A DNA stretch of 64,000 bases from a virus: positions 12,455-76,454 of IMG/VR virus record IMGVR_UViG_3300023179_003528, one strand, 5' to 3'. Position numbers and translations under genes: made by a program. Under the pieces are notes generated by a model that had not been told where the DNA came from, did no database searches, and worked only from the letters and a program-made list of their open reading frames with translations. The number at the start of each line of letters is the position of its first letter. The stretch's first letter is position 1. Positions 8,306-38,177 of the stretch are shown one piece after another.

Positions 8306-10321
8306 ATGAAACTAAAAATCTTAGCAGCAAGTCTAGCGATTGCCTATGGGTCATTACATGCTCAAGTTCAAACAGGAGCATGGTTAACCAGCGAATATGA
8401 CAAAGGTAGAACGCTAAGTGGTATCAATGCAGCCTGGGCATATTCTCGTGGATATAGTGGCAAAGGCAGCACAATTGCTATTATTGATTCTGGAATAGAT
8501 GCCAAATCTGCAGAATTTCAAAATAGAATCAAGGCTGTTTATGATTTTACTAGCTCAGGATCTATCAACGATACTCTAGGACATGGCACCCACGTAGCTG
8601 GTATTGCGGCTGCTGCCAAAAACAACATAGGAACTCATGGGGTAGCCTTTAACGCAGACCTCTTGGTTGCCAAGGTAACCACAAGTGGCCTGGTTACAAT
8701 GACCACTGTGAATAAGGCGGCAGCGTGGGCTAATAGTTATAGTGCAGATGTTGCTAATTTTAGTCTAGGCTTTAGTCTTAGAGATAGTGCAATTGCTCCC
8801 ACTCTAGTTAGTCCAGGGATTTACAAAACCAATGCTACCAATACAGGAAAAACATTAGGAGGTTTAGATCTAGCATCTTGGCGTTCTGCTGTAAATGGAG
8901 AAATGCTTCTAGTGGTAGCGGCTGGCAATGATAATACACCGTGGTCTGGATCTTTGTCTCAGTTAGCCACAGCAACCGATACTAATGGTAATTTACTATT
9001 GGGAGGTCGTGTGATTGTTGCGGGTAACTGGAACAGTCAAGGTGTTACCAAAGCAGGTAAAACAACCTACAGCACAGGACCAAATAATAATGGTTCAGCC
9101 ACTCTATGTATGGTTATGGTAGGCACAGTTTGCCAAGATAAATTCAAGGTCAGTGACTTTTATCTACTTGCACCGGGCACAGGCATTACCAGCACTTTTC
9201 CTATAGATAAGAATAGAACTGGATTGTCCACGCTTACCGGAACTAGTCAAGCAGCTCCTGCCATCAGTGGTGCGGCAGCAATTGTTAAAGAAATGTGGCC
9301 TCAAATGACTGGTAGTAATATTGTAAAATTACTTTTAGTGACTGCTAATAAAAATATTGAGGGTTATAACGTCTATCTGCATGGTCAAGGTTTATTAGAT
9401 CTAGATAAGGCCACACGCCCAGTAGGTAATTTAGGTATTCCTACTACAGGCAGGTTAACTGGACCTCGAGCACTTCCTACAAACCCCATACTAGTCACAG
9501 GCGGCAGTGCAAGCACAGGGGGAGTTGGCAGCATTATTGTGTTAGATGATTTTGACAGAGATTTTGGTATAGATGCAAAATTCTTTACAGCAAGAAAAAC
9601 TACAAAAGAATTTAATCCTGTTCAGGCATTCATGCCTTATGACTCAAAAAACTCTTACAGTCTGCTTAATAACTACAATCAAAGACTAAGTTCAGCATCA
9701 GGAAATCTAGAGTTATCTGTTTATCAAGATACTAATAATGCAAACTTTCAAGTGCCTGGTATGATTGAAGTCGCTTATAAAGTACACGATTTTAAATTTA
9801 CGGCTGCTCATTTTACAGAACAATCTACATGGCTAAGCAATTCATTTGTAGGTTCTAATAGAGAAAGCTCTACCTTGGTGTTAGGATTAGGTATAGATAC
9901 ACCATTATCTGAAAAAAGTAGGGTATACGCTAATGCTATGAATGGCATTACTTCAATAAAAAGTTTTAGCGATAAGGTTACTGGACTGGATACAGCCTAC
10001 AGTTGGTCTTGGACAGCTGGATTAGAAAGAGATCTTGATAAGATTGGTACAATTGGATTAATGGCATATCAACCAGTAAGTGTATATAATGCCAGTGCCA
10101 ATGTTAATATGCCTGTAGGCATAGATCAAAACTTGAATGTTATTCAATCAACTCGGACCAATCTTGCCGCAGATACTAAAGAAACTAGGTTAGGTCTTTA
10201 TTGGAAATATACAGATAATAACAGTTATGCATCTGCATTTGTAGAAACAAGATACAACTATCAAGGAGAAAATGGACAAAAAGACACAGCGGTTGCCTTC
10301 CGAGTTGGAAAAACTTTTTGA
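8306..10321 (+). CDS. exported S8 subtilisin-like serine protease with C-terminal beta-barrel-like domain
   Basis: Signal peptide MKLKILAASLAIAYGSLHA; triad IIDSG, GHGTHVAG, GTSQAAP; oxyanion AAGN; amphipathic beta C-terminus ending in Phe. Confidence 0.88.
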   Translation: MKLKILAASLAIAYGSLHAQVQTGAWLTSEYDKGRTLSGINAAWAYSRGYSGKGSTIAIIDSGIDAKSAEFQNRIKAVYDFTSSGSINDTLGHGTHVAGIAAAAKNNIGTHGVAFNADLLVAKVTTSGLVTMTTVNKAAAWANSYSADVANFSLGFSLRDSAIAPTLVSPGIYKTNATNTGKTLGGLDLASWRSAVNGEMLLVVAAGNDNTPWSGSLSQLATATDTNGNLLLGGRVIVAGNWNSQGVTKAGKTTYSTGPNNNGSATLCMVMVGTVCQDKFKVSDFYLLAPGTGITSTFPIDKNRTGLSTLTGTSQAAPAISGAAAIVKEMWPQMTGSNIVKLLLVTANKNIEGYNVYLHGQGLLDLDKATRPVGNLGIPTTGRLTGPRALPTNPILVTGGSASTGGVGSIIVLDDFDRDFGIDAKFFTARKTTKEFNPVQAFMPYDSKNSYSLLNNYNQRLSSASGNLELSVYQDTNNANFQVPGMIEVAYKVHDFKFTAAHFTEQSTWLSNSFVGSNRESSTLVLGLGIDTPLSEKSRVYANAMNGITSIKSFSDKVTGLDTAYSWSWTAGLERDLDKIGTIGLMAYQPVSVYNASANVNMPVGIDQNLNVIQSTRTNLAADTKETRLGLYWKYTDNNSYASAFVETRYNYQGENGQKDTAVAFRVGKTF

Positions 10322-10807: not shown

Positions 10808-11033
10808 AAAAGAAAAGGTTGTTAATACATATGACCAAGATGACGGTCCATTGACCGAAGAGCAATTAGCTCAACTACCTGTTCAACCAATTCAACAATT
10901 TGAAATAGATTGGGACAAGATCGCAGAAAATGTTCGTGCAGCAGATCTGCTGATAAAAACTAAACCAATTGTAAAACAAGTAGAAAAACCTAAAAAAATT
11001 AAAGTCTCATCTAAACCTAAAAAAAATGTATAA
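10797..11033 (+). CDS. hypothetical protein
   Basis: 78 aa, GAGGAG RBS, overlaps both neighbours. Confidence 0.65.
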   Translation: MPHKKEKVVNTYDQDDGPLTEEQLAQLPVQPIQQFEIDWDKIAENVRAADLLIKTKPIVKQVEKPKKIKVSSKPKKNV

Positions 11034-11424
11034 TTCTAGAAAGATATTCGACGGACCTGAAAAAATAGAGGAGCATGACCCTACTTGGACAGGAATTTTA
11101 CAAGAAGATTTTCATGTCATAGTATATAGAGACAAATACCCCGTAACTAACGGACATATGCTATTTGTTCCTAAATACAACACAATTGATATTCTTAAAC
11201 AGGCCTTTGAAGGTGCTGTTAGATATGGCAAGGACAAAGTTATAAAAAAAGAATGGGACGGATTCAATATAGGTTTAAACTACGGACTTGCTGCAGGACA
11301 GACTGTGGAATGGCCTCATATACATCTTATTCCTAGACGTCATGGCGATGTAGAAGACCCTGTAGGCGGTGTAAGGAATATAATTCATGGCAAGGGCAAT
11401 TACAAAACAACTAATCAAATTTAG
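11026..11424 (+). CDS. HIT-family nucleotide hydrolase
   Basis: DKYPVTNGHMLFVPK and GFNIGLNYGLAAGQTVEWPHIHLIPRR. Confidence 0.88.
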   Translation: MYNSRKIFDGPEKIEEHDPTWTGILQEDFHVIVYRDKYPVTNGHMLFVPKYNTIDILKQAFEGAVRYGKDKVIKKEWDGFNIGLNYGLAAGQTVEWPHIHLIPRRHGDVEDPVGGVRNIIHGKGNYKTTNQI

Positions 11425-12271
11425 TAATCAGCTGGTCCTCTTCATTTAAACAGGCCTGCATGGTACATATCTGAGCAGATGTGGGCGGTAACCATCCATG
11501 ATTCCAAATATTGCCTAGGGGTTGATTTCTACAATAAGCTCCGCTTACAAAACCATTAGTGTCTATAATGAGTTTTTCTATGCCTGCGTTGCACAATTTA
11601 CCAGTATATATATGGTCGCTTTGAGATATATTCTCATGTAATCTTTCTACTACAGTTGTTTGTTGAAACTTAATATTCTCTTCTATAAGATATTCATCGC
11701 CACTCATTATTCTTAGTTGTCTTTCTGTGTAGGGGTATTGACCTCCGTCTTTACTGGCTCCGTGGTATAATACAGATTTTCCTACTATAAAATTATATTT
11801 TTTTTCAATTTCAAGTGCTCTGCTCCAATCTTCATCAAAATGATTAGGCCTCATAGGCACTTCAACATGTATTTCTTTTTCTTTGTCTAGAAAAACAGAT
11901 ATAATATAATCTATTAATGAAGGATTTTGCCAATAATGATAGGACAAAAAAAGTCTATCAATGTAAGGTTCAATAGCCCACCAATCTAACCATAATCTGC
12001 CACCGTTTGTGATTAGATCACATTGTCCATTTAAGGTCTTACACTCTTTTAGTAAAGCAGGAAAATAATCAGTGTCCAATGGTTCTCCGCCATCGAAATA
12101 CCAATCAGTTATTCGTCCCAAGGATTCTGCCCATTCATTAATAATTTTGGCCACTTTGATATAATCATTGATATGTTTGGGTTCTTCTCCTCCACGCAGT
12201 CTTCCTGGACAATAGGAACATTCTGCTTTACAGAAAGTATGAATTTGCCATCTAATTTTAGTTTTAAGCAT
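11411..12271 (-). CDS. radical SAM protein with C-terminal SPASM/twitch-like cysteines
   Basis: CKAECSYC (CxxxCxxC), GGEP and TNG motifs; CNAG...YC...C...C at the C-terminus; ATG 12271 preceded by AGGT. Confidence 0.85.
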   Translation of the reverse strand: MLKTKIRWQIHTFCKAECSYCPGRLRGGEEPKHINDYIKVAKIINEWAESLGRITDWYFDGGEPLDTDYFPALLKECKTLNGQCDLITNGGRLWLDWWAIEPYIDRLFLSYHYWQNPSLIDYIISVFLDKEKEIHVEVPMRPNHFDEDWSRALEIEKKYNFIVGKSVLYHGASKDGGQYPYTERQLRIMSGDEYLIEENIKFQQTTVVERLHENISQSDHIYTGKLCNAGIEKLIIDTNGFVSGAYCRNQPLGNIWNHGWLPPTSAQICTMQACLNEEDQLITKFD

Positions 12272-12298
12272 TGACAAACCTAAATAATTGTGTATAAT
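12271..12298 (+). promoter_or_regulatory. sigma70-type promoter for queE with embedded TAAATA
   Basis: TTGACA 12271-12276, 16 bp, TATAAT 12293-12298; TAAATA at 12281-12286. Confidence 0.65.
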
Positions 12299-12317
12299 TA
12301 CTTATCAAGAGGTGCTC

Positions 12318-13163
12318 ATGAAAAAACTTAAGGTATCAGAACTTTTTTATAGTATACAAGGAGAAGGTCGCTACATGGGTGTTCCTTCTATATTTTTACG
12401 GGTATTCGGCTGCAATTTTACCTGCGATGGATTTGGAATGCCTAGAGGAGAACGATCAAATGAACGGAACTTGGTTGCAAATAGCATTACAGAGTTTAAG
12501 CAGTATAGAGATTTACCACTTGTTCATTCCGGTTGTGATTCTTACGCTAGTTGGGATCCTAGGTTCAAAGACTTTTCACCACTACTTACAACAGATGCCA
12601 TTGCGGAATCGATTAGAGAACTTCTTCCGTTCAAAAAATGGAAGAGGGAACATCTAGTAATCACAGGTGGAGAGCCATTACTGAGTTGGCAACGCAGTTA
12701 TCCTGAACTGTTAAATCATCCCTATATGGATGATCTAACAGAAATTACTTTTGAAACCAACGGAACTCAAAGACTTCATGAGGATTTTAAACTATATTTG
12801 GAATTATGGTCTAATAGAACAGACAGAGAAATTACATTCAGTGTCAGTGCCAAACTTCCAGGTAGTGGTGAGAGATGGGAAGATGCAATTAAACCTGATG
12901 TTATCTGCGATTATGAATCAGTGGGTTGGACTTATCTCAAGTTTGTGGTTGCCACGGAACAGGATATTAAGGACGCTCTTAACGCTGTAATCGAATATCG
13001 CAATGCAGGATTTAAGGGAGAAGTCTACATGATGCCGGTTGGTGGTGTCGAAAGTGTTTATAGTCTAAATAATAAAAACGTGGCCTTGGCCTGTATGGAA
13101 CACGGACTAAGATACAGTGATAGACTTCAGGTGCCACTCTTCAAGAATGAATGGGGTACGTGA
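12318..13163 (+). CDS. queE: 7-carboxy-7-deazaguanine synthase
   Basis: SELFYSIQGEG, FLRVFGCNFTC...CDS, VITGGEP, ETNG and RLQV motifs; ATG 12318 follows GAGGTG. Confidence 0.88.
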   Translation: MKKLKVSELFYSIQGEGRYMGVPSIFLRVFGCNFTCDGFGMPRGERSNERNLVANSITEFKQYRDLPLVHSGCDSYASWDPRFKDFSPLLTTDAIAESIRELLPFKKWKREHLVITGGEPLLSWQRSYPELLNHPYMDDLTEITFETNGTQRLHEDFKLYLELWSNRTDREITFSVSAKLPGSGERWEDAIKPDVICDYESVGWTYLKFVVATEQDIKDALNAVIEYRNAGFKGEVYMMPVGGVESVYSLNNKNVALACMEHGLRYSDRLQVPLFKNEWGT

Positions 13164-15573: not shown

Positions 15574-15949
15574 TCTTACACAGATTGTGGCTCTATCATT
15601 GGGTCTTCCTATTGAGCCAAAAAATGTAAAAAAATACATAGGCCTATGGTGGTGGAGTCCTATTGAAAAACAAGGGGGAGGACTCAAACTTAAAGAACAA
15701 GGCTTAGAGGCACTGGTAAAAGCAGACATAAAACATCACCGCATAACAGTGGAAAATTTTCCAGATGCTACCAATAAAAATATCATATACTTGGACAACT
15801 ATATTGACTGCCCGTGGTATTTAAACAACAGGTATATCTATGTTTTCAGTGAAAGAATGGCAATCCAATTAGTTTTGTATTCTGGTAATCTACAGAAATT
15901 CTTGGAGGCAAAAGCCTACAGGAACAGATTGACAGCGAGTAAGGTTTAG
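15557..15949 (+). CDS. hypothetical protein
   Basis: 130 aa, GGAG RBS. Confidence 0.65.
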   Translation: MKIKHDLTQIVALSLGLPIEPKNVKKYIGLWWWSPIEKQGGGLKLKEQGLEALVKADIKHHRITVENFPDATNKNIIYLDNYIDCPWYLNNRYIYVFSERMAIQLVLYSGNLQKFLEAKAYRNRLTASKV

Positions 15950-15957
15950 CATATAAT
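15929..15957 (+). promoter_or_regulatory. sigma70 consensus promoter
   Basis: TTGACA 15929-15934, 17 bp, TATAAT 15952-15957. Confidence 0.85.
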
Positions 15958-17117: not shown

Positions 17118-17146
17118 TTGACAATTGTATGTTTAGACTGTATAAT
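17118..17146 (+). promoter_or_regulatory. sigma70 consensus promoter
   Basis: TTGACA 17118-17123, 17 bp, TATAAT 17141-17146; AAGGAG RBS follows. Confidence 0.85.
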
Positions 17147-17175: not shown

Positions 17176-18411
17176 ATGGCTGTAATGAAGTCTGAAAAAA
17201 CTAGTAAGATTGAGGCACGTGAATTTAGTCAATCTGAGAAAAATAAAATAGTTGAAAAGCTGGTAACCGCTCGAATCGGTCTGCTACTGCGTCATCCGTT
17301 TTTTGGCAATCTTGCCACACGTATGAAACTAATTGATGCTACAAATTGGTGTCCTACATTGGCCACAGATGGTCGTAATTTTTACTATAATAATGATTTC
17401 GTAAATAAACTGACTCCTAAACAGGCCGAGTTTGGATTCGCACACGAAGTTCTACACAACATATTTGACCATATTGGTCGTAGAGAAAACCGCGACCCGC
17501 AACTCAGTAACATTGCCGCAGATTTTGCAGTCAATCAAATCCTAAAAGATGAACGTATCGGCGAAGTACCAGATTGGATCAAAATTTTCCAAGACAACAG
17601 ATACCGTGGCATGAGCTATGAGGAAATCTATTCGGACCTTGAAAGCCGCGCCTGTAAAATAAATATTGGTTCTCTAGGAGAACTGTTAGATGAGCACCTA
17701 GACGGTGAAGGCGACGGTGAAGGTGGTGATGAAGATGGTAAGGGTCGTCCTAAACTTACTCCAGATGAAAAGAAAGCCATACGAGATGAAATCAAAGAGG
17801 CCATGATAGCGGCTGCACAGGCCGCTGGCGCAGGAAAAGTGCCTGCGGGAATCGCCCGTCTTATCAAAGACTTTACTGAACCTAAAATGGATTGGCGCCA
17901 ATTGCTGCGTATGAATATTCAAAGTATTATCAAAAGTAACTACAGTTTTAGCCGCCCGAATCGTAAAAGCCAGCATTGCGGTGCCATATTACCAGGTCTA
18001 TTAAATGAAGAAACCATTGACGTATCAGTTGCGATTGATATGAGTGGCAGTATTTCAGATTCACAGGCCAAGGACTTTATCAGTGAAGTAAAGGGTATCA
18101 TGGAGGAATACAAAGACTTCAATTTAGATCTCTGGTGCTTTGATACTGAGGTTTATAATTATGCCAAATTCACCGGTAATACTGCTGACGATATCATGTC
18201 ATACCAAATTAAAGGTGGCGGTGGTACACTGTTCGAAGCAAATTGGGAATTTATGAAAGAAGAGGGCATTGAGCCAAAACGTTTTATTATGTTCACAGAC
18301 GGCTATCCTGGAGGCTCTTGGGGCGATGAGGACTATTGCGAAACCCTGTTTGTAATTCATGGTAACGAAACCATAATTGCACCGTTTGGCCAGACTGCCT
18401 ACTATAAATAA
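17176..18411 (+). CDS. HExxH metallopeptidase-like plus vWA domain protein (DUF2201-type MoxR partner)
   Basis: ATDG, AHEVLH, MIDAS DMSGS, GGGGT and FTDG motifs. Confidence 0.88.
   Translation: MAVMKSEKTSKIEAREFSQSEKNKIVEKLVTARIGLLLRHPFFGNLATRMKLIDATNWCPTLATDGRNFYYNNDFVNKLTPKQAEFGFAHEVLHNIFDHIGRRENRDPQLSNIAADFAVNQILKDERIGEVPDWIKIFQDNRYRGMSYEEIYSDLESRACKINIGSLGELLDEHLDGEGDGEGGDEDGKGRPKLTPDEKKAIRDEIKEAMIAAAQAAGAGKVPAGIARLIKDFTEPKMDWRQLLRMNIQSIIKSNYSFSRPNRKSQHCGAILPGLLNEETIDVSVAIDMSGSISDSQAKDFISEVKGIMEEYKDFNLDLWCFDTEVYNYAKFTGNTADDIMSYQIKGGGGTLFEANWEFMKEEGIEPKRFIMFTDGYPGGSWGDEDYCETLFVIHGNETIIAPFGQTAYYK
18403..18410 (+). promoter_or_regulatory. T4-type late promoter TATAAATA
   Basis: Exact T4 late consensus at the gene boundary. 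Confidence 0.6.
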
Positions 18412-18423
18412 ACTTAGTAGATA

Positions 18424-18717
18424 ATGTCTTTAAGTAGAGGTGAACTTAATCCGTTGGGTGTTTTGGGACAAAGAAAGTTAACTTTCATTCCAAAACACTT
18501 TGTTAAAATATCTATTCCTATATATTTTTCTATTGAAATAGATAATTGGATTAACTACAACCTTAATGGAAGATATGCTATTAAACATAAACTAGTTATA
18601 GATCAATCTAACAAACTAATTGAAACATTAGAAATCGGACTAGAAGATCCTATGGAACTTACCATGTTCACATTAGGATGCCCATATTTACATGAAAAAG
18701 GAAAGGATTTATTTTAA
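18424..18717 (+). CDS. hypothetical protein
   Basis: 97 aa, coupled to the next gene. Confidence 0.65.
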   Translation: MSLSRGELNPLGVLGQRKLTFIPKHFVKISIPIYFSIEIDNWINYNLNGRYAIKHKLVIDQSNKLIETLEIGLEDPMELTMFTLGCPYLHEKGKDLF

Positions 18718-18914
18718 TGGAAAATCAAACTGCTCAACCAGAACTTAGCCTCACTGATCTTGCCAATATTAGATCAATTATTGATACTGCCTCACGCAGA
18801 GGCGCATTTCATGCCGCCGAAATGAGTGCTGTAGGTTCCGTATTTGATAGGCTCAATAACTTCTTAACTGCGGTTACACCTAAACCATCAGAAGAAGCAG
18901 CACCACAAGAATAA
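18717..18914 (+). CDS. hypothetical protein
   Basis: 65 aa, IIDTASRRGAF motif. Confidence 0.7.
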   Translation: MENQTAQPELSLTDLANIRSIIDTASRRGAFHAAEMSAVGSVFDRLNNFLTAVTPKPSEEAAPQE

Positions 18915-18924
18915 GGAATATAAA

Positions 18925-19572
18925 ATGAAGCATGTAGGTAAGATGAAAAACAACGGAGCAAAAATAGTCATTGTATATAGGACTATCCCTGGCGATTCTA
19001 ACAGTGCTCTGGTAGTTGGCACCAATGGTTTAGGTGAAAGTTATCACGATGCTCTTATGAGTTTAATACAAGATTCAGCAGGACAAAATGCACATGAGTT
19101 AGCAGATATTCTATCTGTAAGATCTTTCCCAGATGGTTCTAATATGTTGCAATTTTTGCACACAAGAGGACATCTTAAAAAGGTTCCTACAAATGGTGTT
19201 TTGGTTACTCCTACACCAAATGACAGCATACCACTGAGCGAACTCAATATTCTAATTGCAGAACAAAAAGGCATTACAGTAGATGAACTGGCAGTAACCG
19301 ACGGTTCAAAATCCAAAAAGAAAAAAGACGATGTAACAAAAACTACTTCATCTAGTGTATCAGGTGAAGACTATCACGAAGAACTGCCTGTAGACGTCAA
19401 ACCTACAGATGTTAAGGTTACTTCGGATATAGATACACCTGTTACTGCTTCTGCTCTACGTACAATGGCAGATAAACTGTTTAAAGAAGCACAGGCATTA
19501 AGGAAAAAAGCTGAGGAAATGGAACCTTCTATAAAGAAAGAACGATCAACAAAAACAGCCAAGGTATCTTAA
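18925..19572 (+). CDS. hypothetical protein
   Basis: 215 aa, TAAGGA RBS. Confidence 0.8.
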   Translation: MKHVGKMKNNGAKIVIVYRTIPGDSNSALVVGTNGLGESYHDALMSLIQDSAGQNAHELADILSVRSFPDGSNMLQFLHTRGHLKKVPTNGVLVTPTPNDSIPLSELNILIAEQKGITVDELAVTDGSKSKKKKDDVTKTTSSSVSGEDYHEELPVDVKPTDVKVTSDIDTPVTASALRTMADKLFKEAQALRKKAEEMEPSIKKERSTKTAKVS

Positions 19573-19757
19573 TGAATTTTAAAGTAGGCGACCGGGTAGT
19601 TAAAGTATCTGGTTATACTTGGCCTGGTGTGGTAGTCAGTGTGTTTGATACACTGAAAGGTGAACGAAGAGTTGTTGTAGAATGTACCGTAGCAGAAGTA
19701 GCAGGCGCACTTCATATCTATAATGAAAATCAACTAAAACTGTCAGACAATGACTGA
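19572..19757 (+). CDS. type II (R67/DfrB-like) dihydrofolate reductase homologue, SH3-like fold
   Basis: FKVGDRVVKVSGYTWPGVVV...VVE...GALHIY aligns by eye with R67 [20 protein letters not shown]...AVE...GSVQIY; overlaps thyA. Confidence 0.7.
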   Translation: MNFKVGDRVVKVSGYTWPGVVVSVFDTLKGERRVVVECTVAEVAGALHIYNENQLKLSDND

Positions 19758-20631
19758 ACAATCATATCTAAATACACTTCAAGATATTTTAGATAATGGT
19801 GAATATAGACCTGACAGAACAGGGATAGGAACCATTTCAAAATTTGGTTTAAATATGAAGTTTGACTTAACCAAAGGATTTCCTGCGATCACAACAAAGA
19901 AATTGGCTTGGCTAAGTGTGGTAAGCGAATTACTTTGGTTCATTGAAGGCAGCGGAGATGAATATAGGCTAAAAGAAATACTATATGGAGAACGGTATGA
20001 TAGCCGTAAAACCATATGGACTGATAATGCTACTGCACCTTATTGGACGTCTAGAAAAGTTGCAAGACATGCAGGAGACCTAGGTAGAATATACGGTGTT
20101 CAATGGCGTAGATGGCGTAAGCCACTAATCAGAGTCAATAAGGTTATATTAGCCAACCATGATCAACTATTAGATCTAGTGGATGGGATTAAAAAAGATC
20201 CTTATAGTAGAAGACATATTATCACAGCGTGGAACCCAGGTGAACTTGAATTAATGGCTTTACCACCTTGCCACATGATGGCACAATTTTATGTTACAAA
20301 CGATAAAAAATTAAGTTGTCAGATGTATCAGCGTAGTGCGGATATGTTTCTGGGGGTGCCATTTAACATCGCTAGTTATGCCTTGTTTACACATATGCTT
20401 GCTCAAACATGTAATCTCGACGTAGGGGAATTAACTATCGCTCTAGGGGACGCTCACATTTACACTAATCATATAGATCAAGTAAAAGAACAACTACTTA
20501 GACAACCTTTAGATATGCCAAAACTTGAATTGAATTCGGATGTAAAAGATATAACTAAGTTTACAATGAAAGATATATCTTTAGTAAATTACAAACACCA
20601 TGACGCCATAAAAGCAGATATGGCTGTTTGA
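19750..20631 (+). CDS. thyA: thymidylate synthase ThyA
   Basis: DRTG, TTKK, ELLWF, YGVQWR, SRR, ALPPCH, QRSAD..LGVPFN and GDAHIY motifs. Confidence 0.97.
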   Translation: MTEQSYLNTLQDILDNGEYRPDRTGIGTISKFGLNMKFDLTKGFPAITTKKLAWLSVVSELLWFIEGSGDEYRLKEILYGERYDSRKTIWTDNATAPYWTSRKVARHAGDLGRIYGVQWRRWRKPLIRVNKVILANHDQLLDLVDGIKKDPYSRRHIITAWNPGELELMALPPCHMMAQFYVTNDKKLSCQMYQRSADMFLGVPFNIASYALFTHMLAQTCNLDVGELTIALGDAHIYTNHIDQVKEQLLRQPLDMPKLELNSDVKDITKFTMKDISLVNYKHHDAIKADMAV

Positions 20632-21399
20632 TTACCAAAAATGTGCCCCTAAATTTATTTTTCTCCAACTATTAGTGGCGGTGCATACATACAAAAATCC
20701 ACCGTCCCAAACCATAGTTCCCTTTTTTCCTGTAGAGTTCGATGCTGTAGGAACAGTAACATCTAACCCAAATTGAACACTACCGCTAATCTGAATATTA
20801 CCTAAAATATTCAATCCGGCTACAGTTTGCGTGGTGTGGTCAGTAATATAATTATAGGCAGAACTATCACTTACGTTAAAAGATTCGTGAGTAATATAAC
20901 CTATAACATTGTCGTAATTCTTTATTAAGGTTACGTCTCTAGGATCATCATCTATGTCATTAATTACAGTAGAGGGCAAAACCCAACCATTTTCACCAAC
21001 TTCTGCAGGAAATGCTGGTCCGACAAGATAGACAACTCCATCATAATAAGTTTTTAATTGTTCATCGGTTGTATCCCACCACAGATCCCCAGAATTCAAA
21101 TTATCAGGCTCTTGATCTGCGGTAATAGCTCCGGCAACAGGTTTAAATGATCCATCATATACCTTTAATCTCTGTGCTGTGGTATCATACCAAAGTTGTC
21201 CTGTTAATGGATTTTGAGGAGGGTTGTTAGTGGACGAAGCATTATTAGCCAATAATTTTATAAGATTATTATTATAAATCTCTCCGTATCCACTATAATT
21301 TTTACCAACCAAAGTCAAACTAGTAGATAATTTATCAATAGTTTTGTCTGCCAATGTTACTAAAATTGTTCCATCTGTGTTTAGTATGGTATAAGCCAT
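20632..21399 (-). CDS. baseplate/fibre-associated structural protein
   Basis: TSLTLVGKNYSGYG...GQLWYDT module shared with the neighbouring gene; C-terminal YVC..N.W module. Confidence 0.6.
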   Translation of the reverse strand: MAYTILNTDGTILVTLADKTIDKLSTSLTLVGKNYSGYGEIYNNNLIKLLANNASSTNNPPQNPLTGQLWYDTTAQRLKVYDGSFKPVAGAITADQEPDNLNSGDLWWDTTDEQLKTYYDGVVYLVGPAFPAEVGENGWVLPSTVINDIDDDPRDVTLIKNYDNVIGYITHESFNVSDSSAYNYITDHTTQTVAGLNILGNIQISGSVQFGLDVTVPTASNSTGKKGTMVWDGGFLYVCTATNSWRKINLGAHFW

Positions 21400-21400
21400 A

Positions 21401-22867
21401 TTATTCTACCTTAATTATGTAATAGGTTACTTTAGATCCAATGTTAAAATATAGGTTAGGTAAACTAAACAATGGATCGACTCCACCGTAATAAGTTCCT
21501 ATTACATTAAACAAATCAGGATAATTGGTTTTGTTTAAAACTGCACCTGTACATACCATCCATCCATCCGGTATAGCATTTGTCACTGTAGATCCCGCAA
21601 ATAATTGTAATGTGCCTGTACTGGAATAATAATTGCGGGCATATACATTTCTGGCATGTATATCTCCAAATGGCTGAGATTTTGTTCCTATGCTATTTGT
21701 AGACGTTGTGGCTCTTACGTTATTAACAAACAATGTATTAGAACTAGTAGTAATACCTGTTAAACTTACTGCTCCACTTACACTCACTCTCCCTGTTAAC
21801 GTAGTTTCACCAGTAACAGTCAACGAACCTAGTGTTGCAGCACTTGTTACAGTAAAGTTTCCTGTTACCTTAGTATTCTTTTTTAGATTAATTTGTGTAA
21901 GATCTACATCAACTATTGGGTTCGAATCACCTAATAATTTAACTAAAAATTTACCACTTGCTTTGTTATTATAAACAACTGCATCATCTGAATCTTTGTA
22001 AAATTGAACATATTCAGTTGTAGGTGTGCCATCAATTCTTATTACAACACCATCTCTACCTTTTGCCGCTGTTTGGTTTGATGGCGTATTATAAATGATA
22101 CTGCCAGTTATTAACTGTCCATTAGCCGTACTATCATTTTTTCTAAGATAACTTGTAGCAGCGAATTCTCCCAACTTATCTGCATTAGTTGCTGTGCCTT
22201 GAAATTTCGCCACAGTTCCAACGACACCAAATGAGGATGTAGATAAATTTACACCTGGTTTGATGCTGTCAAAACCTTCATAAACAGGCAAATAAGAATT
22301 TATTGTAGCAGTAGATGTTATAGAAATTACATTACCATCTGCCCACGTAAACACACAATCATGTTTTATAGATGTATCACTAGCGTCGGTAATTTCCTCA
22401 ACTGTAACACCAGATTGTTCTGCTCCTCCCGATGACGGTCCTACCGTAATCCAATTATTATTGCTAAACAATTTAATTTGATTATATGCAGTATCAATCC
22501 ATAAGTCACCGTCTTTCAATGCCTCAGCGCCGTATATTCGTGGATCAGTTCCTTGCTGATATAACCCTGTAGCAGATGGCCAACGAGTCAACGTCGATGA
22601 GCCATCCATAATTCTTAGAACTTTACGATTAGGATTGCTAGTATCATACCATAATTGTCCTTGTATAGGATTTTCAGGCGGTATTGGTCCAGCAAAGTTT
22701 TCTAGTAAACTTAAAAAATTCTGAGCATATTTCTCACCGTAGTTAGGATAACCTCTACCTAACAGGCTTAAACTTGTATCAACTGTGTTAATGCCCGGAG
22801 GCATTGGTGGAACAACTACTGTAGAAGTATTTGTAGGATCCGAAAATCTAAGAGTATATCCTGACAT
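21401..22867 (-). CDS. tail fibre/baseplate protein with C-terminal tail-collar domain
   Basis: IPDGWMVCTG...YPDLFNVIG..YGG...FSLPNL...YIIK collar motif. Confidence 0.75.
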   Translation of the reverse strand: MSGYTLRFSDPTNTSTVVVPPMPPGINTVDTSLSLLGRGYPNYGEKYAQNFLSLLENFAGPIPPENPIQGQLWYDTSNPNRKVLRIMDGSSTLTRWPSATGLYQQGTDPRIYGAEALKDGDLWIDTAYNQIKLFSNNNWITVGPSSGGAEQSGVTVEEITDASDTSIKHDCVFTWADGNVISITSTATINSYLPVYEGFDSIKPGVNLSTSSFGVVGTVAKFQGTATNADKLGEFAATSYLRKNDSTANGQLITGSIIYNTPSNQTAAKGRDGVVIRIDGTPTTEYVQFYKDSDDAVVYNNKASGKFLVKLLGDSNPIVDVDLTQINLKKNTKVTGNFTVTSAATLGSLTVTGETTLTGRVSVSGAVSLTGITTSSNTLFVNNVRATTSTNSIGTKSQPFGDIHARNVYARNYYSSTGTLQLFAGSTVTNAIPDGWMVCTGAVLNKTNYPDLFNVIGTYYGGVDPLFSLPNLYFNIGSKVTYYIIKVE

Positions 22868-24448: not shown

Positions 24449-27400
24449 TTATAATTCCTCTAGCGGCTCATTATCTTGGTCTGTTAGGGCAAATCCTCCC
24501 TCATTAGTGATTGCAACATCGCCACCATAATAGTAACTATCTGGCAATTCAGCAGGTCTAGCCTGTAAGAATCTTGCAGGCACTGTGGTGCTGGTCATTA
24601 GTGAATATGTAGATGTGCTATTTACTACATCGTTCCATACATCCTCTGCATCAAATTCACGTTTAATAATCACTAACTTAATATTCTGCTGCACACTCTC
24701 TTTAATATTTAAACTAATAGTTTGATCTTTTATACTAAACTCAGGTGGTAAATAATCTATGCCGCTGTATTCATAACCGTTGAACGAACCATATTTGTCA
24801 GAGTTAGTATAAACCCAAACTTGGTTAGTAGAAGTAATAACATAGGCAGTGCCTAATACTGTAGTTTCTGGAAGATAGGACACTTCAGATATCCATCTAT
24901 TTTTACGGCCTTCCTCAGAATTCTTTATGGAATTTTCAATTTCCTCATCAGTCAATGAACCACTATTCCCTACATAATTAGACACCCAATAGTTTAATTC
25001 GCCTTGGTCTGGATTTCTATTAAAATACTTTAGATAATATCCAATTACCGTAGGAGCATAATTAGATGGATCAGCAACAGAAACAGTGACACTTGTGCCG
25101 TAAATGGGAGGTTTAGGAATATTTAAAAAGTACGGTGTATCATAGGTAAACTCTATGTCCTGCCTAAATGTTCCAACTTTGTTCAATACTCTACCGCCGT
25201 AAACAACTGTAACTTGGTCCTCTAATCTAATCGGATTTGGCACTGAGGTTGTTGTGTTTATTGTATTTAAAATTATTCCATCGTTGGTCAGTGTGCTATA
25301 CGAAACTGTTTGACCAAGATAATTTGTGCTTACTGTAGATGTAGTAAACGACAATGTACTAATGTAGTAGGTATTACTATTTGCCTGTGTATAATGCACC
25401 TGTTTTAAAATTCTTTCAGTAAATGGTATTGTCTGTTGACTACCTTGATCAATAACTTTTGTATTTTCACGTGAATAAAAACTTGGGCTTGTTCCTAGCG
25501 TTCCTCTTCTTAGCTGAGACAATACATTGCTAGCAACCTTAAAAAATTCAATGCGTTCGGCATCTACAATGATTACTCCTGGAAGATTTTTTTCTATGTC
25601 TGGACTGGTTAAAACTTCTGCATCAGCCACATGAATTTCTAGATCATATACTGATAGAGGTTGAGTAAGATAAGTTGAATTCTCTTTACTTAATCGTTTA
25701 AAATGTGTCCTATTAAAAATATCATTAAAAATTCTATAGCCTAAAATTGTAGTGGCTAACTGCTCATTGCTGAACGTAATTATTGTAACCTCATTAACTT
25801 CTGAATGATAAAATTTATCTGAGATTTGAATAGTTACTGCATCACCTAGTATTTCATAATCATAATGATTAACTAGAGGAACACCATCAACAATAACCCA
25901 GACGTAATCTATGTCTAAAGCAGGACGACTAATCACATAACGTCTAGCAGGGTTACCTCTAAAACGTTCTGTTCTCATCAGCATATCGTCATGATTATTA
26001 TAGGTTATAACTTTTAATTCATAGGGATATGTTGCCGATCCTGGAGGGGCAATTGTCAATTGATTGCCTACAATATCGTAATCATAACTATATGATCCAG
26101 TTTGTGAAATAGCGGCTATGGCTATCACATCACCGTTAACAATAGGCACCAGTATAGAAAAAGTATTAGGAATTCCACTATAAGCATAATCAAAACCTCT
26201 TCTTAGTTCTCTTCCATTTAAATAAGCCCTAACATCTGTAACACTTCCATAATTTACACCGTATGTATCAATTTTATAGGCTGTAATTAAAGCATTGCTT
26301 ACTTTGAAATAAGTTACATCAGGAGGACGCAAAAGTTTTCTTAACCCCGACGAATTAGATTCTACAATAGTTTGAGCCACTACTGGTTCTATGCTTCCCG
26401 GTGGATATGTTAATACCCATGAAACTTCCCCAGCATTATCAACCACCAGTATTTCTTCATTTATTTCATTAAAATATCTTTGAGCTGTTCCAAAAAACCA
26501 TGCTGTTACTGTAGCGGTCGTAGAGTCATCTATATTGTAGACATTAACTGCTGCTCTATTACTGTTTTCATTTGCATAGGTTAATATATAACCATAATCA
26601 GTTGTTGTTGTAACTTCATTAATGGCTGAACCGTTCACTGTAACATAGGCACTTTTAACTGTGCCCAATTGTGCTAAACTTTGCAGTTGAACTGAAGAGG
26701 TATTATTTGCTATGACACTAACTGTATCAATAACACCTGCTTCTTTAAAATCTCTACCTCCACCAACACTTATTATACTCACACCCAATATGCCTTTAAT
26801 ATCCTGAGGAGGAATAATTATGTCATTAGAGGACCATTCTATACTAAACTCTGTAGATGTTGTAAAGTTTGTTGTTGAATTATAGGACATTAGCCTATTC
26901 TCAAACGTTACCACTAAAGAACTACTGTTAGGTGGAGTGATACTCAAATGCCTTGTGCTTAAGGATCCTGGATAGATAACATAGTAGGTATTAACAATAA
27001 TAGGGGCACCTTCAGGATGCTTGGTGTAGACATTTATACCGGTACTTTGATTTATTTCTCCCGGAACTAATTCTTCTGGTGCATAAGTGTGGTTAGGGCT
27101 TATAAATGCTTCGCCATCAATTGTAATATCTTCAGGATTTATTCCTAATGCTGCTATTCTGGTGCTAGTGGTCCAAGATCCGCCTTCTATAGCACTGTCT
27201 AAAATTGTAGTTTCTGTATCATAAGTCCAGAATTCTATACTGGCTATACTGGTTGTGTTAGTGTATGTCCCATCTACAAAAACAGTAGAAATGGTTGCTG
27301 TTAAAGGCAGTCGTGTAGATGTTGTTAATGTAACAGTTCTAGCAGAAGTATTTACAGATTGAACTCGTGGCGTAACATTAAAGAAGCTACCAGAAAGTTG

Positions 27401-30400
27401 TTGTTTGCTAGCACTAATTACGTTAACTAATTGTCCAGGAAAAATACCTGTGGTAGTTGTTAGTGTTAACACCGATGTTCCGCTACTGGCAGTATTGGTA
27501 ACTTCAATATTAGAATAAAATGCAATATCATCAGCCCAAAAACTTATACCGTAAGCACTGGTGGTTTGTGAACCTGTTCTTTGATCCACTAACCAATTTA
27601 TGCCCCACTTAGTTGTATAGTTAAATGGCAGTCCTTCTACAACTGTTCTCGGAAAAGTTATACCTTGCATGAGCTGATCTAAATCAGTACCGGGCATACC
27701 GTCTGTTGGAGCATAATATTCACTAATACGATCAACTGCATTTAGCAATGCTACATTTTTCTTATACCTAACGGTCAATACCTGGTTAGTTTTAGGTGTG
27801 TAATTTAAAAATACCAATTTGGAATATTCTTTCCTATAATCGGTGTTAGCACCAATATAATCTTTATAATAGACCACAGTATAATCACTGCTTAAAACTA
27901 TTTGACCATCTAACGTGGGCCGAATTTGAGCCTTATCTGGAACAGCTATCCATGAAAGAACAAATTCTGTGTCTGCGCCATTACACAAGAATTTGTCCTC
28001 TGTGTCTATTTGTGACACTTCTTGACTTCTAGATGTTCTATCAAACTTCATGCCAAGTGTCAACTCTCTCACTGTGTCATTTGATAACACAGCATAAGCT
28101 GAAGCATTTTCTGTAACTGCTCCTCCTCCTGATATTACTACAACAGGTGGTCTTGTATACCCAGATCCGTAATTTGTAACTTCAAACCCTACTACCTGTC
28201 CTGACCTAATAAATGCTCTTGCAGTCGCTCCAGACCCATTATCTCCTAATTGGTTTACAAGGGTTATTGTAGGCGTTTCTGTATATCCTGCACCGCCTTT
28301 TGACACACGAATACTTCCCACATAATAGGTATAATTATCTACCCATGATTTCCATGGATAAGTTAGCATCCATGTGTTGGTAGAAGTAAATGAACTTGCA
28401 GGAACGGTTGCTGGTATCTCCAATGTATTGAATCCATTCTTAGGATCGTCGTAATATGGAGGAAAATCAAAGTCTGTAATGTAGGTATAACTTGGTTCAG
28501 TTTGATTATATTTGGTTGTAAAATTTCTAATTTGAGTATGATATGGTTTTACTTCTTTAAGGTAATCTTCATAGTATTCGCTGTTTTGAACTTTATATGT
28601 AGATCTTTGATCCAGCGAACCAGCATTATTTGTTACATTTATGAATGAAGTTTTGAATGCCCAATCCAGTCTCTTTTGCTCAGTTAATGCATATTTTATG
28701 GCTTTAAAGAATAAAAGATTATAATGAACTTTTAAATCATTTATAAACAAATCTTCCTTAATAGCTTTAAGTATATAAGATGTTTCTACGTAAGGCTCGT
28801 AACCGCTGTAATTCCAAATCAAATCTTTTATCTGTAATGATCCTTTTTCTAAATAAACTAAATTATAGCCCTTGCTAAATGAGCCAACTGTGTCATCATC
28901 TATTTTTTCTAATATTATATAGTTGCCCTGACCGTTATTATTAACCTTAACATAATCACCTAGATCAATCTGCTCAATAGTTTTTAGTTGATATATTTCA
29001 TCTATGGTATATGCGTAATCAACAAACTTATTATATGTCTCGCTGGTCCAATCAATATAATCCCAATAAAGACTAGTATTATAACTCTGAGTAGCGACTC
29101 TCACCCAGCCTAAAGAATATCCTTGGTATTCATACTTTGACCACTTACCATTTTGAGTATTATCAACTTCAACTATTGCTGTATAAGGTCTTACTGTAAT
29201 GGTAGGGGCAGCAGTAAATCCTTGCCCGGTATTTTTAATTGTAGCTGTAACTACTTGACCTAGACTATCAATCTCTAGGTCAATCTCAGCTCCCTTGTTA
29301 TTTTCAATATTAACTCGAGGTGCATAAACATACCTATATCCAGGTTCAATTATGTTTACTGAAACTATTCTACCGTTATTTAAAGAACAAGATAGTTGCG
29401 CCTGTTTTAACATAGAAGTGTTTAAAAAATCTAATCCTTCAGTATCTTCTAATATTATATCATATCGACCATCGCTTACATGGGGAATTTCTTCTTTAGC
29501 TTTTAAATTACTTAGATTATATTTTTCTGTAATTCTTTCTGTAATAATAATATCATTTACATATTCAATAATGTTTCTGAGTGCTGTAAATCTATCTGCA
29601 AACAGTGTTTGTCTAGGGCGAATTCCTATACCATATTTCTCTCTAAATGTTAAATTAGGATCAGGAACTGGATTACCTAATAAATCTTTACCTAACAGGC
29701 TGTCATATAATTTTTTCTCTAGCAACGCAGGAGGCATGCTGGTGGATGAGCCTTCCTGCATCAATAACCATTCTGTATGTCTAGGAATTGAATTATTAAT
29801 TATATCAGATGAAATATTTAGACTTATTCTATCATCAATTAATATAGGTCCCACATTGGCCAATGCCAGGGCATTTTGATCTATAATTTGACCAAACTGT
29901 ATTCCATACCCAGTGGGGTTTTCAATTATACTGGCCAGCTGAACAGCAGTGACTCTGCGATTTTTCTTATTAGGCAATATAATTCTATTTTTTACCCAGA
30001 AGTAATATACATTGGTAAAACCTCCGGTAGTTGGATTATAAACTTGTTTTACAGAGACAACATCATTTAGAGGATATTTAGGTTGCCCACTTATACCATC
30101 AGTTAAACCTTGTGATGTATCCGCAAGCACTGCCCATTCGCTTGGTAATAACTCGGTGCCTACCCACTCGTATATATCTATTGTAGAGCCAGGAAATAAT
30201 CTACCCCAGTTATTTTTTCTATAACTAAGCTCACCTTGTTCATACCAAACATATTTTACATTGCTGGTATCCCACCATATTTCTCCCACATGCTCATCTA
30301 ACCAGTTTATTTCTGCATCAATAACTACTTCACTATTTCCCACACTGTAGACCGCGGGATCAATATTAGATTTATACTTGATATCTTCATCAGCGATACC

Positions 30401-33400
30401 AGCAATTTTCCCTTTTAATGGATCAATTATATCTAGATGCTCAATAACCTCGTCGTTGAATGTATCATATAATGTTAACTTTTGGACTGTGTTGATATCT
30501 ACCAATTCATCTTGCTGTCTTAAAACACTCCAACTCTTATCAAGAATTTTCTTTTGATACTGATAAAATGCACTTTGAGGAACCTGTTCGCCAATTACAG
30601 TTCTATATGCAGGTGCTCCTACATAAACCGAATTATCATTAACAGCTATACTAAAGCCGAAATTAGTTCCTGTGCTAGGATCTAATATAGGTAATTCATC
30701 TGCTAATCTAAATTTGTTAAGATAACGATTGTAAACATAAGCAGTCCCGCTGTATTTTACCGTGTCAAAAAATGTTGTAGATCCAGAGTCAAATGTTGTT
30801 TCATCTGAAAGGTCTGAGTTAGAATCTTTGACAAACTTTGTTTCGTAAATAGCTTCAGAATTGGCCAATAATGAATCATATCTATCAAAGGTCATTCTTA
30901 GATTTTTATTTGTGCCTTGCGCTGTAATAATCAACTCTGTTGAATCAGAATTAACACCGATGGCCTTGCCAAATTTCATACCTGGGTTAGACACAGGGTT
31001 GTGTATGATAGATTCTAAATTAAATTTAACAGAATCAGTAAGAGTATTTTTATAAACAGCTACCTTGCCATATGATTGATCGGTGTTGCGTGAATCAGGA
31101 GCAGATACAAATAACCAATTGCCATCTGAACTGACAGCTACCGCTTCTCCAAACTTAGCATTTCTTTCAAATGGGCTAGATATAGTCTGTGCCAATGTTA
31201 TATTGGTTGTTGTAAAAATTGATACAAATCCAGTGTTAGTGTAATAACCAGGTGCGGCAATGGCAACAACTTCAGATTTCTTACTACCACTTATAACCTG
31301 TCCCCAGCGTGATCCTGTATTGACTGTTATAGGAGCTGCGATATGTTTTATATATGAAACATTAACCTGATTAGATGCAGTAGTAAAATTATAAACATAG
31401 ACCGTGCCTGTGCCTGCAATAGAAATATTTGGAGCACCAACTAATAATACCTGTGTATTGCCCAAGTCCAGGTTAGAAACATACACACTAGACCCAAAGC
31501 GTTCGTAATTATTAGGGTAAGGGCTAATTAAAGAACCTTGACTGACTTCAGTATTGGTTCCTATAAATGTGCTAATTTTTACCAACCCTTCTTCTAACCT
31601 AGCACTAAACGAACCAGTATTTCCAGCGAATCTTAAACCTCCAGAGCTATAAGATTGGCGAGTGTAACTTACCAAAGGTGCACCGGCAAAAACTATACCA
31701 TATGAACTGGTGTTAAACTTATTCAAATGATAGGCCAATCCTTGACCGAAATTTGTAAACCCTCCGGGCCTATAATAAGTTGTGCTAGGAGAATTCACAC
31801 CGTAACTTGTCACAAGACTTACATCACCTTCAATTTCATTGTATAAAAATACGGTGCCCGTATTCGTTCCTGTTCCTGCGGCCGCGACAACAAAATTATT
31901 ATTAGAATCTTTTTGAGTTATTTTATAACCCAACTGTGTTGTAGTATTTTCTGCAACTGTCTTGATACTATAACTATTGTAATTTTTAATTTTTTCAATG
32001 ACTTGCCAATTATTATTACCATTGTCTAATAGCCAATTCTTTGCGCCGTAGGGCAATCTTAGCAATATATTATCTTTTGGTAAATTATCAAAATCTGCGA
32101 ATTTTGCTGATTGAAATTTAAAAACTAAACCAACATCTTCAGCGGTAAAGCCAGTAAAGAAAAAACTAGATGTAGTAGAAATTACAAATGAGTTTATTGT
32201 AGGAACTTCTACAATTTGATATACACCATTTACTGTGTCTGCAAACTGGCTTATGCTAACCACATCATATCTGTTTATATTATGAGCTTTTTTAGTCTTA
32301 AAAATATATCTATCAGTAGAACCTTCTTGCAGACTAACCGATGATAACGCAGAACTACCTAAAACATATCTATATACATCCCAATCTTTATTTCTCTTAT
32401 TACTGATCCATACATAGTCATCAATCAATAATACTCTATTATTTTCAATATCAGTTAATGAATTTTCGTTATAGGCAGTATAATCAACATCATCAAATCT
32501 AACAAACCCAGCAGTTTCAAGTTTAAATATTTCTGTGTCATTGGTTGTTTTGAATGTAGACGACGACACATATCCATCATATGTAATCAACAAATCTGTT
32601 TGAGTTGTATAATATATTAGAGACTTATTGTCAATTTGTATTTCATCATTGAAAGTCACAATCTGTGGATTATCTACAAACTCTCCTTCACGCAGTGTTA
32701 CTTCAATTTGTTTATAGGTCTCAAAAGAACCAAAATGTCCTATTCTAAATGCCCATTCTTCGTTATAAGAAATTTCACCTTGTAGATTATGAATTGCTGC
32801 TTTGGCTAATTTTTCAATGGCATTACGTGTGCCCTTTTCTCTAATAAATCCTTGATAAAATTTATATTGAGCAATAGGATTAGTAAAAATACTATTAAGA
32901 TACGGTCTAGGAGTATATCCAATCAAATGCTGCGCCATCTTTTGTTGGGCAGAATCAAAGTTATCTATATCTAAACTATAAAAATCTTCGAATTGATTGA
33001 TCTTGTAGTCAAAATTTGGTAACAGTTCTGCTATGGGTTTATCACCTAATAACACCCATTCGGCAAAATCAAACTTATCAGACCCTATAGTACTATTCTT
33101 GGCTGTATAATATTTTCCGTTAAACCTTACTACATCTCCTGCATTGTAATTTGTATAATTTTTCCAATTTCTAATATAGGCAACGTCATAAACAAATCCT
33201 GGGCTAAAATAATCACCGTTCCAATCGCTGGTTCTAAATCCTGTTAATCTAATTCTTTGTTGCCTATATCCTGTTGCAGTGTTGTATATAGTATCATTAA
33301 AAATTGTTGAATTATTTAGAACAATCGCATGTTCTTTTTGAATATTGTTAAGAGTGGCAAAGTATAAACCATCAGTAAAATTTACTGTGTTTATGGTACA

Positions 33401-38176: not shown

Positions 38177-38177
38177 A

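Follow-up and report, generated by a model that had tools for sequence, protein, structure and literature searches.

In bacteriophage T4 the frd and td genes form a pair in which a FolA-type dihydrofolate reductase (DHFR) adjoins thymidylate synthase. In the 64,000-nt stretch of viral DNA analysed here (the window), the thymidylate synthase gene thyA is immediately preceded by an open reading frame (ORF) coding for a protein of 61 amino acids, and the locus raises the question of whether this short protein takes the part of the reductase. An earlier note on the same DNA had seen in it a homologue of R67 DHFR (DfrB1; PDB 1vie, 2rk1, 2p4t), the type II trimethoprim-resistance enzyme of plasmids and integrons, and had proposed both a native role in the phage thymidylate cycle and a possible relation to the ancestry of the resistance genes.

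The thyA block and its phage

The features of the locus, in the order in which they occur, are the following:

17118..17146, + strand: sigma-70-type promoter consensus (TTGACA, 17 nt, TATAAT), matched at 12/12 positions
17176..18411, + strand: DUF2201 metallopeptidase/VWA-like gene (Pfam DUF2201_N, DUF2201), which opens a tightly packed block
within 17176..18914, + strand: a 97-aa ORF and a 65-aa ORF of the same block (from the ORF list), conserved in gene order
18925..19572, + strand: ORF of 215 aa, PHROG 15894 (unknown function), its stop overlapping the DfrB-like start
19572..19757, + strand: DfrB/R67-like SH3-fold protein of 61 aa (from the ORF list), cluster II-like, with the B4 motif LHIY; putative type B dihydrofolate reductase
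19750..19757, + strand: 8-nt overlap, read in the sequence, with the junction ATGACTGA; the thyA ATG falls within the final codons of the DfrB-like ORF
19750..20631, + strand: thyA, canonical thymidylate synthase of 293 aa, of the dihydrofolate-producing type (Pfam Thymidylat_synt, E=1.4e-102)
20632..22867, - strand: convergent tail-fibre-like genes (from the ORF list), with a Phage Tail Collar domain in a 488-aa protein

The genes of the block follow one another without gaps in the order DUF2201 / 97 aa / 65 aa / 215 aa / 61 aa / thyA, and the block ends where the thyA stop abuts the tail-fibre-like genes with zero intergenic bases. The consensus at its upstream end is, from its letters, a candidate promoter of this block ending in dfrB-thyA.

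The overlap of 8 bp between the 61-aa ORF and the start of thyA, which the earlier note had pointed out, was borne out by the coordinates (19572-19757 versus 19750-20631), and it suggests that the DfrB-like gene and thyA are translationally coupled. At its other end the ATG of the DfrB-like gene overlaps the stop of the 215-aa ORF in the sequence TAATG. The junction is identical or nearly abutting in the relatives L007, L027, L012, L014 and L020, and the 215-aa ORF occupies the same place at all 8 loci with the window-type gene order. No close DNA relatives were returned when the locus was compared by megablast with the phage collection. Comparison of the 61-aa gene with its relatives gave dN/dS values of 0.03-0.2 with dS saturated, which indicates strong purifying selection.

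The identity of the synthase is secure. Its scores lie beyond three NCBIfam equivalog cut-offs (NF002497, 345.1 against 327; NF002496, 343 against 325; TIGR03284, 341.8 against 108), and the translation shows the PPCH nucleophile motif as well as RSAD and PFNIASY. Being canonical by these scores and motifs, the window ThyA should yield dihydrofolate. The alternative assignment of this neighbour as a dUMP/dCMP hydroxymethylase was ruled out by the thymidylate synthase equivalog scores and by the Asn of PFNIASY; a hydroxymethylase instead of ThyA would have removed the need for a DHFR.

The window belongs to an IMG/VR record of 76,454 b, for which CheckV gave a completeness of about 20%, corresponding to a genome of about 380 kb, and the same estimate followed from a related record of 263,709 b, 69% complete. 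Relatives are represented by contigs of 330-350 kb. The phage is T4-like: its markers include the major capsid protein Gp23 and the portal Gp20, a DNA polymerase of family B, SMC and Metallophos proteins resembling gp46/47, and a T4 baseplate protein. A tRNA scan of the 64,000-nt window found none.

Relation of the 61-aa protein to R67 DHFR

The earlier note had recognised the R67 core by eye, with equivalents of K32 and W38 and with LHIY in place of VQIY, and the HMMER alignment agrees with that reading. Residues 2-51 of the protein were aligned on residues 23-70 of R67, K11 and W17 being paired with K32 and W38, respectively, and L47-H48-I49-Y50 with V66-Q67-I68-Y69. The loop ahead of the beta-4 motif is 2 residues longer than in R67, and neither W45 nor H62 is present. 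Among PDB sequences the best match was 2p4t, a Q67H mutant of R67 in which the motif likewise contains HIY.

The search with the DHFR_2 profile that the earlier note had put forward as a check gave a divided result: DHFR_2 (PF06442) was the sole Pfam match of the 61-aa protein (E=1.3e-3, profile positions 24-69 of 78), but the score of 18.9 bits fell below the Pfam gathering score of 25 bits. A relative with 70% identity (P0300) clears this cut-off with 26.7 bits. The NCBIfam model NF000331 (trim_DfrB) gave 20.4 bits (E=3.5e-4), far under its cut-off of 137. When the family profile, taken from alignment A1 with its 27 members, was compared with the PDB sequences, the top four matches were all R67 entries (2p4t, E=7.6e-5; 1vie, 6ny0 and 3sfm, about 2e-3), and DHFR_2 was the top Pfam match for 25 of the 27 members. 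Within this alignment no variation occurs at K11, L47, H48 and I49, and at least 90% of the members share W17 and Y50. The FolA-type profile DHFR_1 (PF00186) did not match the 61-aa ORF, which resembles frd solely in its position and presumed role.

The AF2 model of the protein, with a pLDDT of 90.6, contains five strands. In the Foldseek search of the PDB, ranks 1-7 were all occupied by R67 DHFR, with TM values of 0.80-0.85, rmsd of 2.0-2.3 A and 30-32% identity; SH3, Tudor and PWWP folds followed behind at TM 0.74-0.76, the Tudor and PWWP folds with about 20% identity. A generic SH3/Tudor/KOW protein was set aside as an identification, R67 outranking these folds in both structure and identity and the profiles singling out DHFR_2. 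Among the predicted viral structures of BFVD the top match was A0A6J5PTB3, with TMq 0.87, rmsd 1.1 A and 46% identity over 59 columns. The features shared with R67 are thus the predicted SH3-like fold of five strands, the K32 and W38 equivalents, the GD-V-K--G core and the beta-4 pore motif. R67 differs in having VQIY together with W45 and H62, at an identity of only about 30%, whereas the window protein is devoid of the disordered N-terminal tail and is encoded in a phage operon rather than in an integron cassette. Judged from the sequence and the model together, the homology of the 61-aa protein with R67/DfrB is real but remote.

A frame for reading these residues is given by the study of Lemay-St-Denis et al. 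2025 (PMC12486381), in which 20 viral DfrB homologues were found among 386 homologues. Lys or Arg at position 32 was the most conserved residue of the active homologues, the beta-4 motif followed a nonpolar/polar/nonpolar/aromatic rule with VQIY exclusive to cluster I, and activity was best predicted by a predicted tetramer (PMC12486381). In the window protein LHIY fits the beta-4 rule, K11 supplies the positive residue (K or R) of position 32, and W17 is the counterpart of W38, the tryptophan of the dimer-dimer interface in R67.

The characterised protein closest to the window protein in predicted structure, A0A6J5PTB3 of an uncultured Caudovirales phage, belongs to cluster II; it is a tetramer by SEC with a kcat of 1.07 s-1, is insensitive to trimethoprim and confers trimethoprim resistance, but its kcat/KM was the lowest of the set and it was described as closer to a binder than to a catalyst (PMC12486381). 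It resembles the window protein in its viral origin, in its nearly identical B4 motif (LHIF versus LHIY) and in the 46% identity, and differs in being longer, its 174 aa including an additional N-terminal region that the bare 61-aa domain of the window lacks. The motif LHIY itself occurs in a DfrB-TS fusion (bitBiome BBD027md-00173_03685) of ordinary efficiency, for which both activities were demonstrated (PMC12486381). In common with the window, this fusion has LHIY and a DfrB domain paired with a ThyA-type synthase; unlike the window, where two genes overlap by 8 nt, it is a single polypeptide.

Gene neighbourhoods and the thymidylate cycle

Linkage of the homologue to thyA was found to recur in four arrangements, none of which is a copy of another. 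The window-type overlap or abutment is present at 8 of the 67 IMG/VR loci, these 8 sharing the gene order. Another is found in Pelagibacter phage Kolga, where gp36 ends 4 nt before thyA. In the Rhizobium phages RHph_N1_10 and RHEph10 the DfrB-like domain is fused in frame to ThyA, and at locus L070 a MazG-like gene and thyA lie upstream of the homologue, thyA being about 600 nt away. Kolga gp36 (QLF88482.1, annotated as 'hypothetical protein') resembles the window gene in having thyA next to it and in its C-terminal domain, 52% identical to the window protein; it differs in its length of 150 aa, in an N-terminal DUF1599-like ('nucleotide modification associated') domain, in reading LHVY, and in carrying F at the W38 position. 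The thyA gene of Kolga is only 26% identical to that of the window.

The survey of thyA neighbourhoods that the earlier note had called for therefore supports the linkage in its four arrangements but not its generality, as thyA is adjacent in only 8 of the 67 IMG/VR relatives. Most of the close relatives (75-82% identity, on jumbo-phage contigs) stand away from thyA, and two other gene orders dominate. In one of them the homologue is found about 3 kb downstream of folE (GTP cyclohydrolase I) and is directly followed by a MazG/PRA-PH pyrophosphohydrolase gene; in the other the homologue comes after an ATP-dependent DNA ligase, and in the sole long record of this kind thyA is 135 kb away. Nine phages or proviruses of 35-61 kb, 86-100% complete, encode homologues with 62-73% identity and neither ThyA nor ThyX, the homologues being placed among helicase, PD-(D/E)XK nuclease and polymerase genes. 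Homologues within an identity range of 61-74%, shared with these small phages, occur also at 11 bacterial loci, mostly of Bradyrhizobium and otherwise of other Alphaproteobacteria, and thyA was present within 4 kb at none of the 11. Since phages free of thymidylate synthase and bacterial loci carry homologues, the family cannot everywhere serve a phage ThyA; where the phage synthase is absent, the homologue may top up the folate cycle of the host or do something else. The longer members of the family (220-429 aa) were searched for a ThyA domain and none was found, their N-terminal parts belonging to an unknown family. The family is thus much larger than in the published survey with its 386 homologues, 20 of them viral: one search gave 255 proteins at 90% clustering, and in another no fewer than 1,587 clusters were obtained at 50% identity (E<=1e-3), with identities of 60-85% across unrelated phages.

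The statement of the earlier note that the window contains no FolA-type DHFR holds also for the entire 76,454-b record, about 20% of the genome. Neither a FolA-type DHFR (PF00186) nor ThyX (PF02511) was found in this record or in those of 27 relatives, the 28 records searched for the former including the 264-kb record that is 69% complete. Because the record covers about 20% of the genome, a FolA-type gene may still lie elsewhere in this phage. The same combination has been described for viral homologues of cluster II, which were near thyA in four of four cases, in one of them '5 base pairs' off; FolA was lacking from these four genomes, and three of the four proteins were active in tests (PMC12486381). 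A thymidylate-cycle role of DfrB homologues in viruses that have ThyA and no FolA was proposed on that occasion (PMC12486381).

Considering all these data, we regard the 61-aa protein as likely to be a type B DHFR that works in conjunction with the phage ThyA. The ORF would then code for a dihydrofolate reductase of type B (R67/DfrB-like) from the divergent 'cluster II', whose four SH3-like protomers would form a homotetramer surrounding a central pore. The pore is predicted to be walled by the beta-4 motif LHIY, with K11, the equivalent of K32, at its mouth, and to hold NADPH and dihydrofolate together, so that hydride could be transferred directly from one to the other. The DfrB-like gene is probably translationally coupled to the overlapping thyA, and its product could be coupled to ThyA in vivo, converting the dihydrofolate released by the synthase into tetrahydrofolate and sustaining dTMP synthesis during replication of the phage genome of about 380 kb. 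The window phage resembles T4 in that a reductase gene, here a putative one, immediately precedes the thymidylate synthase gene, and differs in that the reductase has an unrelated fold and no PF00186 match; a FolA-type DHFR has probably been replaced by a non-homologous protein at the frd-td position.

The native thymidylate-cycle role advanced in the earlier note is therefore supported by the sequence, the predicted fold, the gene order, the lack of FolA and ThyX in the records searched and the published viral homologues, while the pairing with thyA proved less general than had been implied. The idea is not new, as it is stated explicitly in PMC12486381; what is new here is a lineage of T4-like jumbo phages in which a bare domain of 61 aa overlaps thyA.

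Several other explanations of the locus have to be weighed against a reductase that serves ThyA. That the frame arose by chance, or is an artefact of a 5' extension of thyA and is not expressed, could be thought of in view of its length of only 61 aa and of its lack of annotation in some phage records; it is already refuted by conservation, as seen in the 255 close homologues, the 1,587 clusters at 50% identity and the dN/dS of 0.03-0.2 with saturated synonymous sites, to which the confident predicted fold may be added. It is a good deal less far-fetched, and in our opinion still improbable, that the protein is a non-catalytic SH3-like module for binding or oligomerisation, like the DfrB homologues of clusters III-V, that binds nucleotides, DNA or protein and stands beside thyA by an accident of gene order. 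SH3, Tudor and PWWP folds are indeed close behind R67 (TM 0.74-0.76), most close relatives lie in replication and repair surroundings (DNA ligase, SNF2 or DEAD helicase, PD-(D/E)XK nuclease, HhH-GPD glycosylase), nearly complete small phages keep homologues with no thymidylate synthase, and binding has been proposed as the ancestral function of the family (PMC12486381). However, little or no variation is seen at the residues that set the catalytic clusters apart (the equivalents of K32 and W38, and a B4 motif of a permitted form), and the nearest characterised proteins are those of the catalytic cluster II and not of clusters III-V. The overlap with thyA or fusion to it, which came about independently at least four times, speaks against an accident, and the non-catalytic viral homologues of the literature co-occur with ThyX, which is absent from the records searched here.

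Slightly less probable again is a DfrB-like NADPH-dependent reductase or binder with another pterin or a nucleotide as its main substrate, for example in a 7-deazaguanine/pterin branch, for which the dihydrofolate of ThyA would be secondary. Such a substrate would suit the common gene order with folE about 3 kb off and MazG/PRA-PH directly after the homologue, the fusion of Kolga gp36 to DUF1599, and the retention of the family in phages devoid of thymidylate synthase; but the publications consulted offered no biochemical precedent for a different substrate, the immediate partner in the window is thyA, with overlapping codons, and the fusion in the Rhizobium phages is to ThyA itself. A wider reading of the family, to which we assign more weight than to either of the two preceding proposals and which nevertheless seems rather doubtful, is that the LHIY clade is very large, mostly phage-borne and largely missed by surveys of protein databases, and that its core role is broader than the service of phage ThyA (a boost to the folate cycle of the host, or binding of other pterins or nucleotides), the thyA overlap of the window then being one of several independent recruitments.

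Annotation and the clinical resistance genes

With the putative type B reductase beside ThyA as the preferred reading, the locus is a clear case in nature of an unrelated SH3-fold protein, probably an enzyme, that stands in for a FolA-type DHFR at the frd-td position of a T4-like jumbo phage. The locus also lends support to the published view that the native metabolic role of DfrB-type reductases is older than trimethoprim.

The suggestion in the earlier note that such genes are a reservoir or the ancestor of clinical dfrB was not sustained. The identity to R67 is about 30%, the trim_DfrB score is 20.4 against a cut-off of 137, the motif is LHIY and not VQIY, and the origin of the clinical dfrB genes has been traced elsewhere, to chromosomes of Burkholderiales (PMC11662351). 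The gene is part of a conserved T4-like phage operon, where it lies between DUF2201-family genes and tail-fibre genes, free of any integron, plasmid or mobile-element setting, and the locus does not directly bear on where the clinical resistance genes came from.

The main use of these data is in annotation. In a 2025 survey, dfrB accounted for 8 of 1,961 dfr genes of phages, and genes of the present type appear to be far commoner in phage metagenomes than identity-based screens report; they also represent a natural sequence diversity that could be used to study the evolution of minimal enzymes. Most of these ORFs are 'hypothetical' or uncalled. The DfrB-like domain of the two Rhizobium phages is likewise unannotated; it has its own AAGGA and TTG start and runs without a stop into the annotated thyA.

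Probable fusion of a DfrB-like domain to thyA in Rhizobium phages

In two cultured Rhizobium phages the DfrB-like domain and thyA were found in one frame (coordinates here and below are local to each homologue-bearing locus, unless referred to the window).

L002, 3001-3996: DfrB-like domain and thyA in one frame, Rhizobium phage RHph_N1_10 (MN988505.1)
L006, 3001-4017: DfrB-like domain and thyA in one frame, RHEph10 (JX483881.1)

The annotated start of the thyA CDS is an internal Met in both phages, and the DfrB-like domain is located in-frame 5' of it, with zero stops between. The domain, which contains the LHIY motif and has F at the W38 position (R67 numbering), possesses its own AAGGA Shine-Dalgarno sequence and TTG start, and RHph_N1_10 differs from RHEph10 by synonymous changes. 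The separate start signals, the open frame into thyA and the synonymous differences suggest that both phages encode a fused DfrB-ThyA protein, about 331 aa long, which the annotation misses. This putative fusion resembles the one DfrB-TS fusion described by Lemay-St-Denis et al. 2025 (PMC12486381), which comes from a single-cell genome. RHph_N1_15 and N2_6 gave tblastn matches as good as those of the two phages described.

Gene contexts of other homologues

In Pelagibacter phage Kolga the homologue forms part of a larger protein.

L001, 2713-3165: Kolga gp36, 150 aa, annotated 'hypothetical protein'

It consists of two domains, a weak match to DUF1599 ('nucleotide modification associated domain 1') followed by the DfrB-like domain; its end is separated by 4 nt from the start of thyA, 3' of which a MazG-like gene is found.

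Gene order B is one of the two commonest arrangements lacking an adjacent thyA among jumbo-phage relatives, and examples, to which similar loci exist, are:

L013, 206-1042: gene order B
L021, 4179-4541: gene order B

In many of these contigs a MazG/PRA-PH-type pyrophosphohydrolase lies directly 3' of the homologue and GTP cyclohydrolase I (folE) about 3 kb upstream; the setting is that of pterin and nucleotide genes, not of thyA. The 82% identical homologue of L085 occurs on a 95,604-b contig (JAIXQO010000008.1) of a 'Proteobacteria bacterium' MAG; this contig may derive from a jumbo phage and have been assigned to the bacterial genome during binning.

Homologues with 62-73% identity were also present in phages and proviruses of 35-61 kb and 86-100% completeness (records G017-G025; loci L055, L057, L059, L062, L065, L067, L072 and L073). 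None of ThyA, ThyX and FolA was found in these near-complete genomes, where the neighbours of the homologue are SNF2 or DEAD helicase, DUF2800 PD-(D/E)XK nuclease and DNA polymerase genes.

Other features of the window

Two sites matching the sigma-70 consensus at 12/12 positions (TTGACA, 17 nt, TATAAT) show a likeness to T4-type early promoters.

15929-15957, +: perfect consensus promoter before the AAA ATPase gene; promoter function putative
17118-17146, +: perfect consensus promoter before the DUF2201 gene; promoter function putative

The following genes were also recorded.

8306-10321, +: subtilase, 671 aa (Peptidase_S8, E=1.2e-34)
11026-11424, +: HIT-domain gene, overlapping the end of the next
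11411-12277, -: radical SAM gene, Pfam match near or below cut-off
12288-13163, +: second radical SAM gene, in divergent orientation to the first, Pfam match near or below cut-off
24449-38200, -: single ORF of 4,583 aa, structural-gene region

The subtilase gene is carried by a T4-like phage genome, and the 4,583-aa ORF is followed on the same strand by large ORFs of 1,130 and 987 aa.
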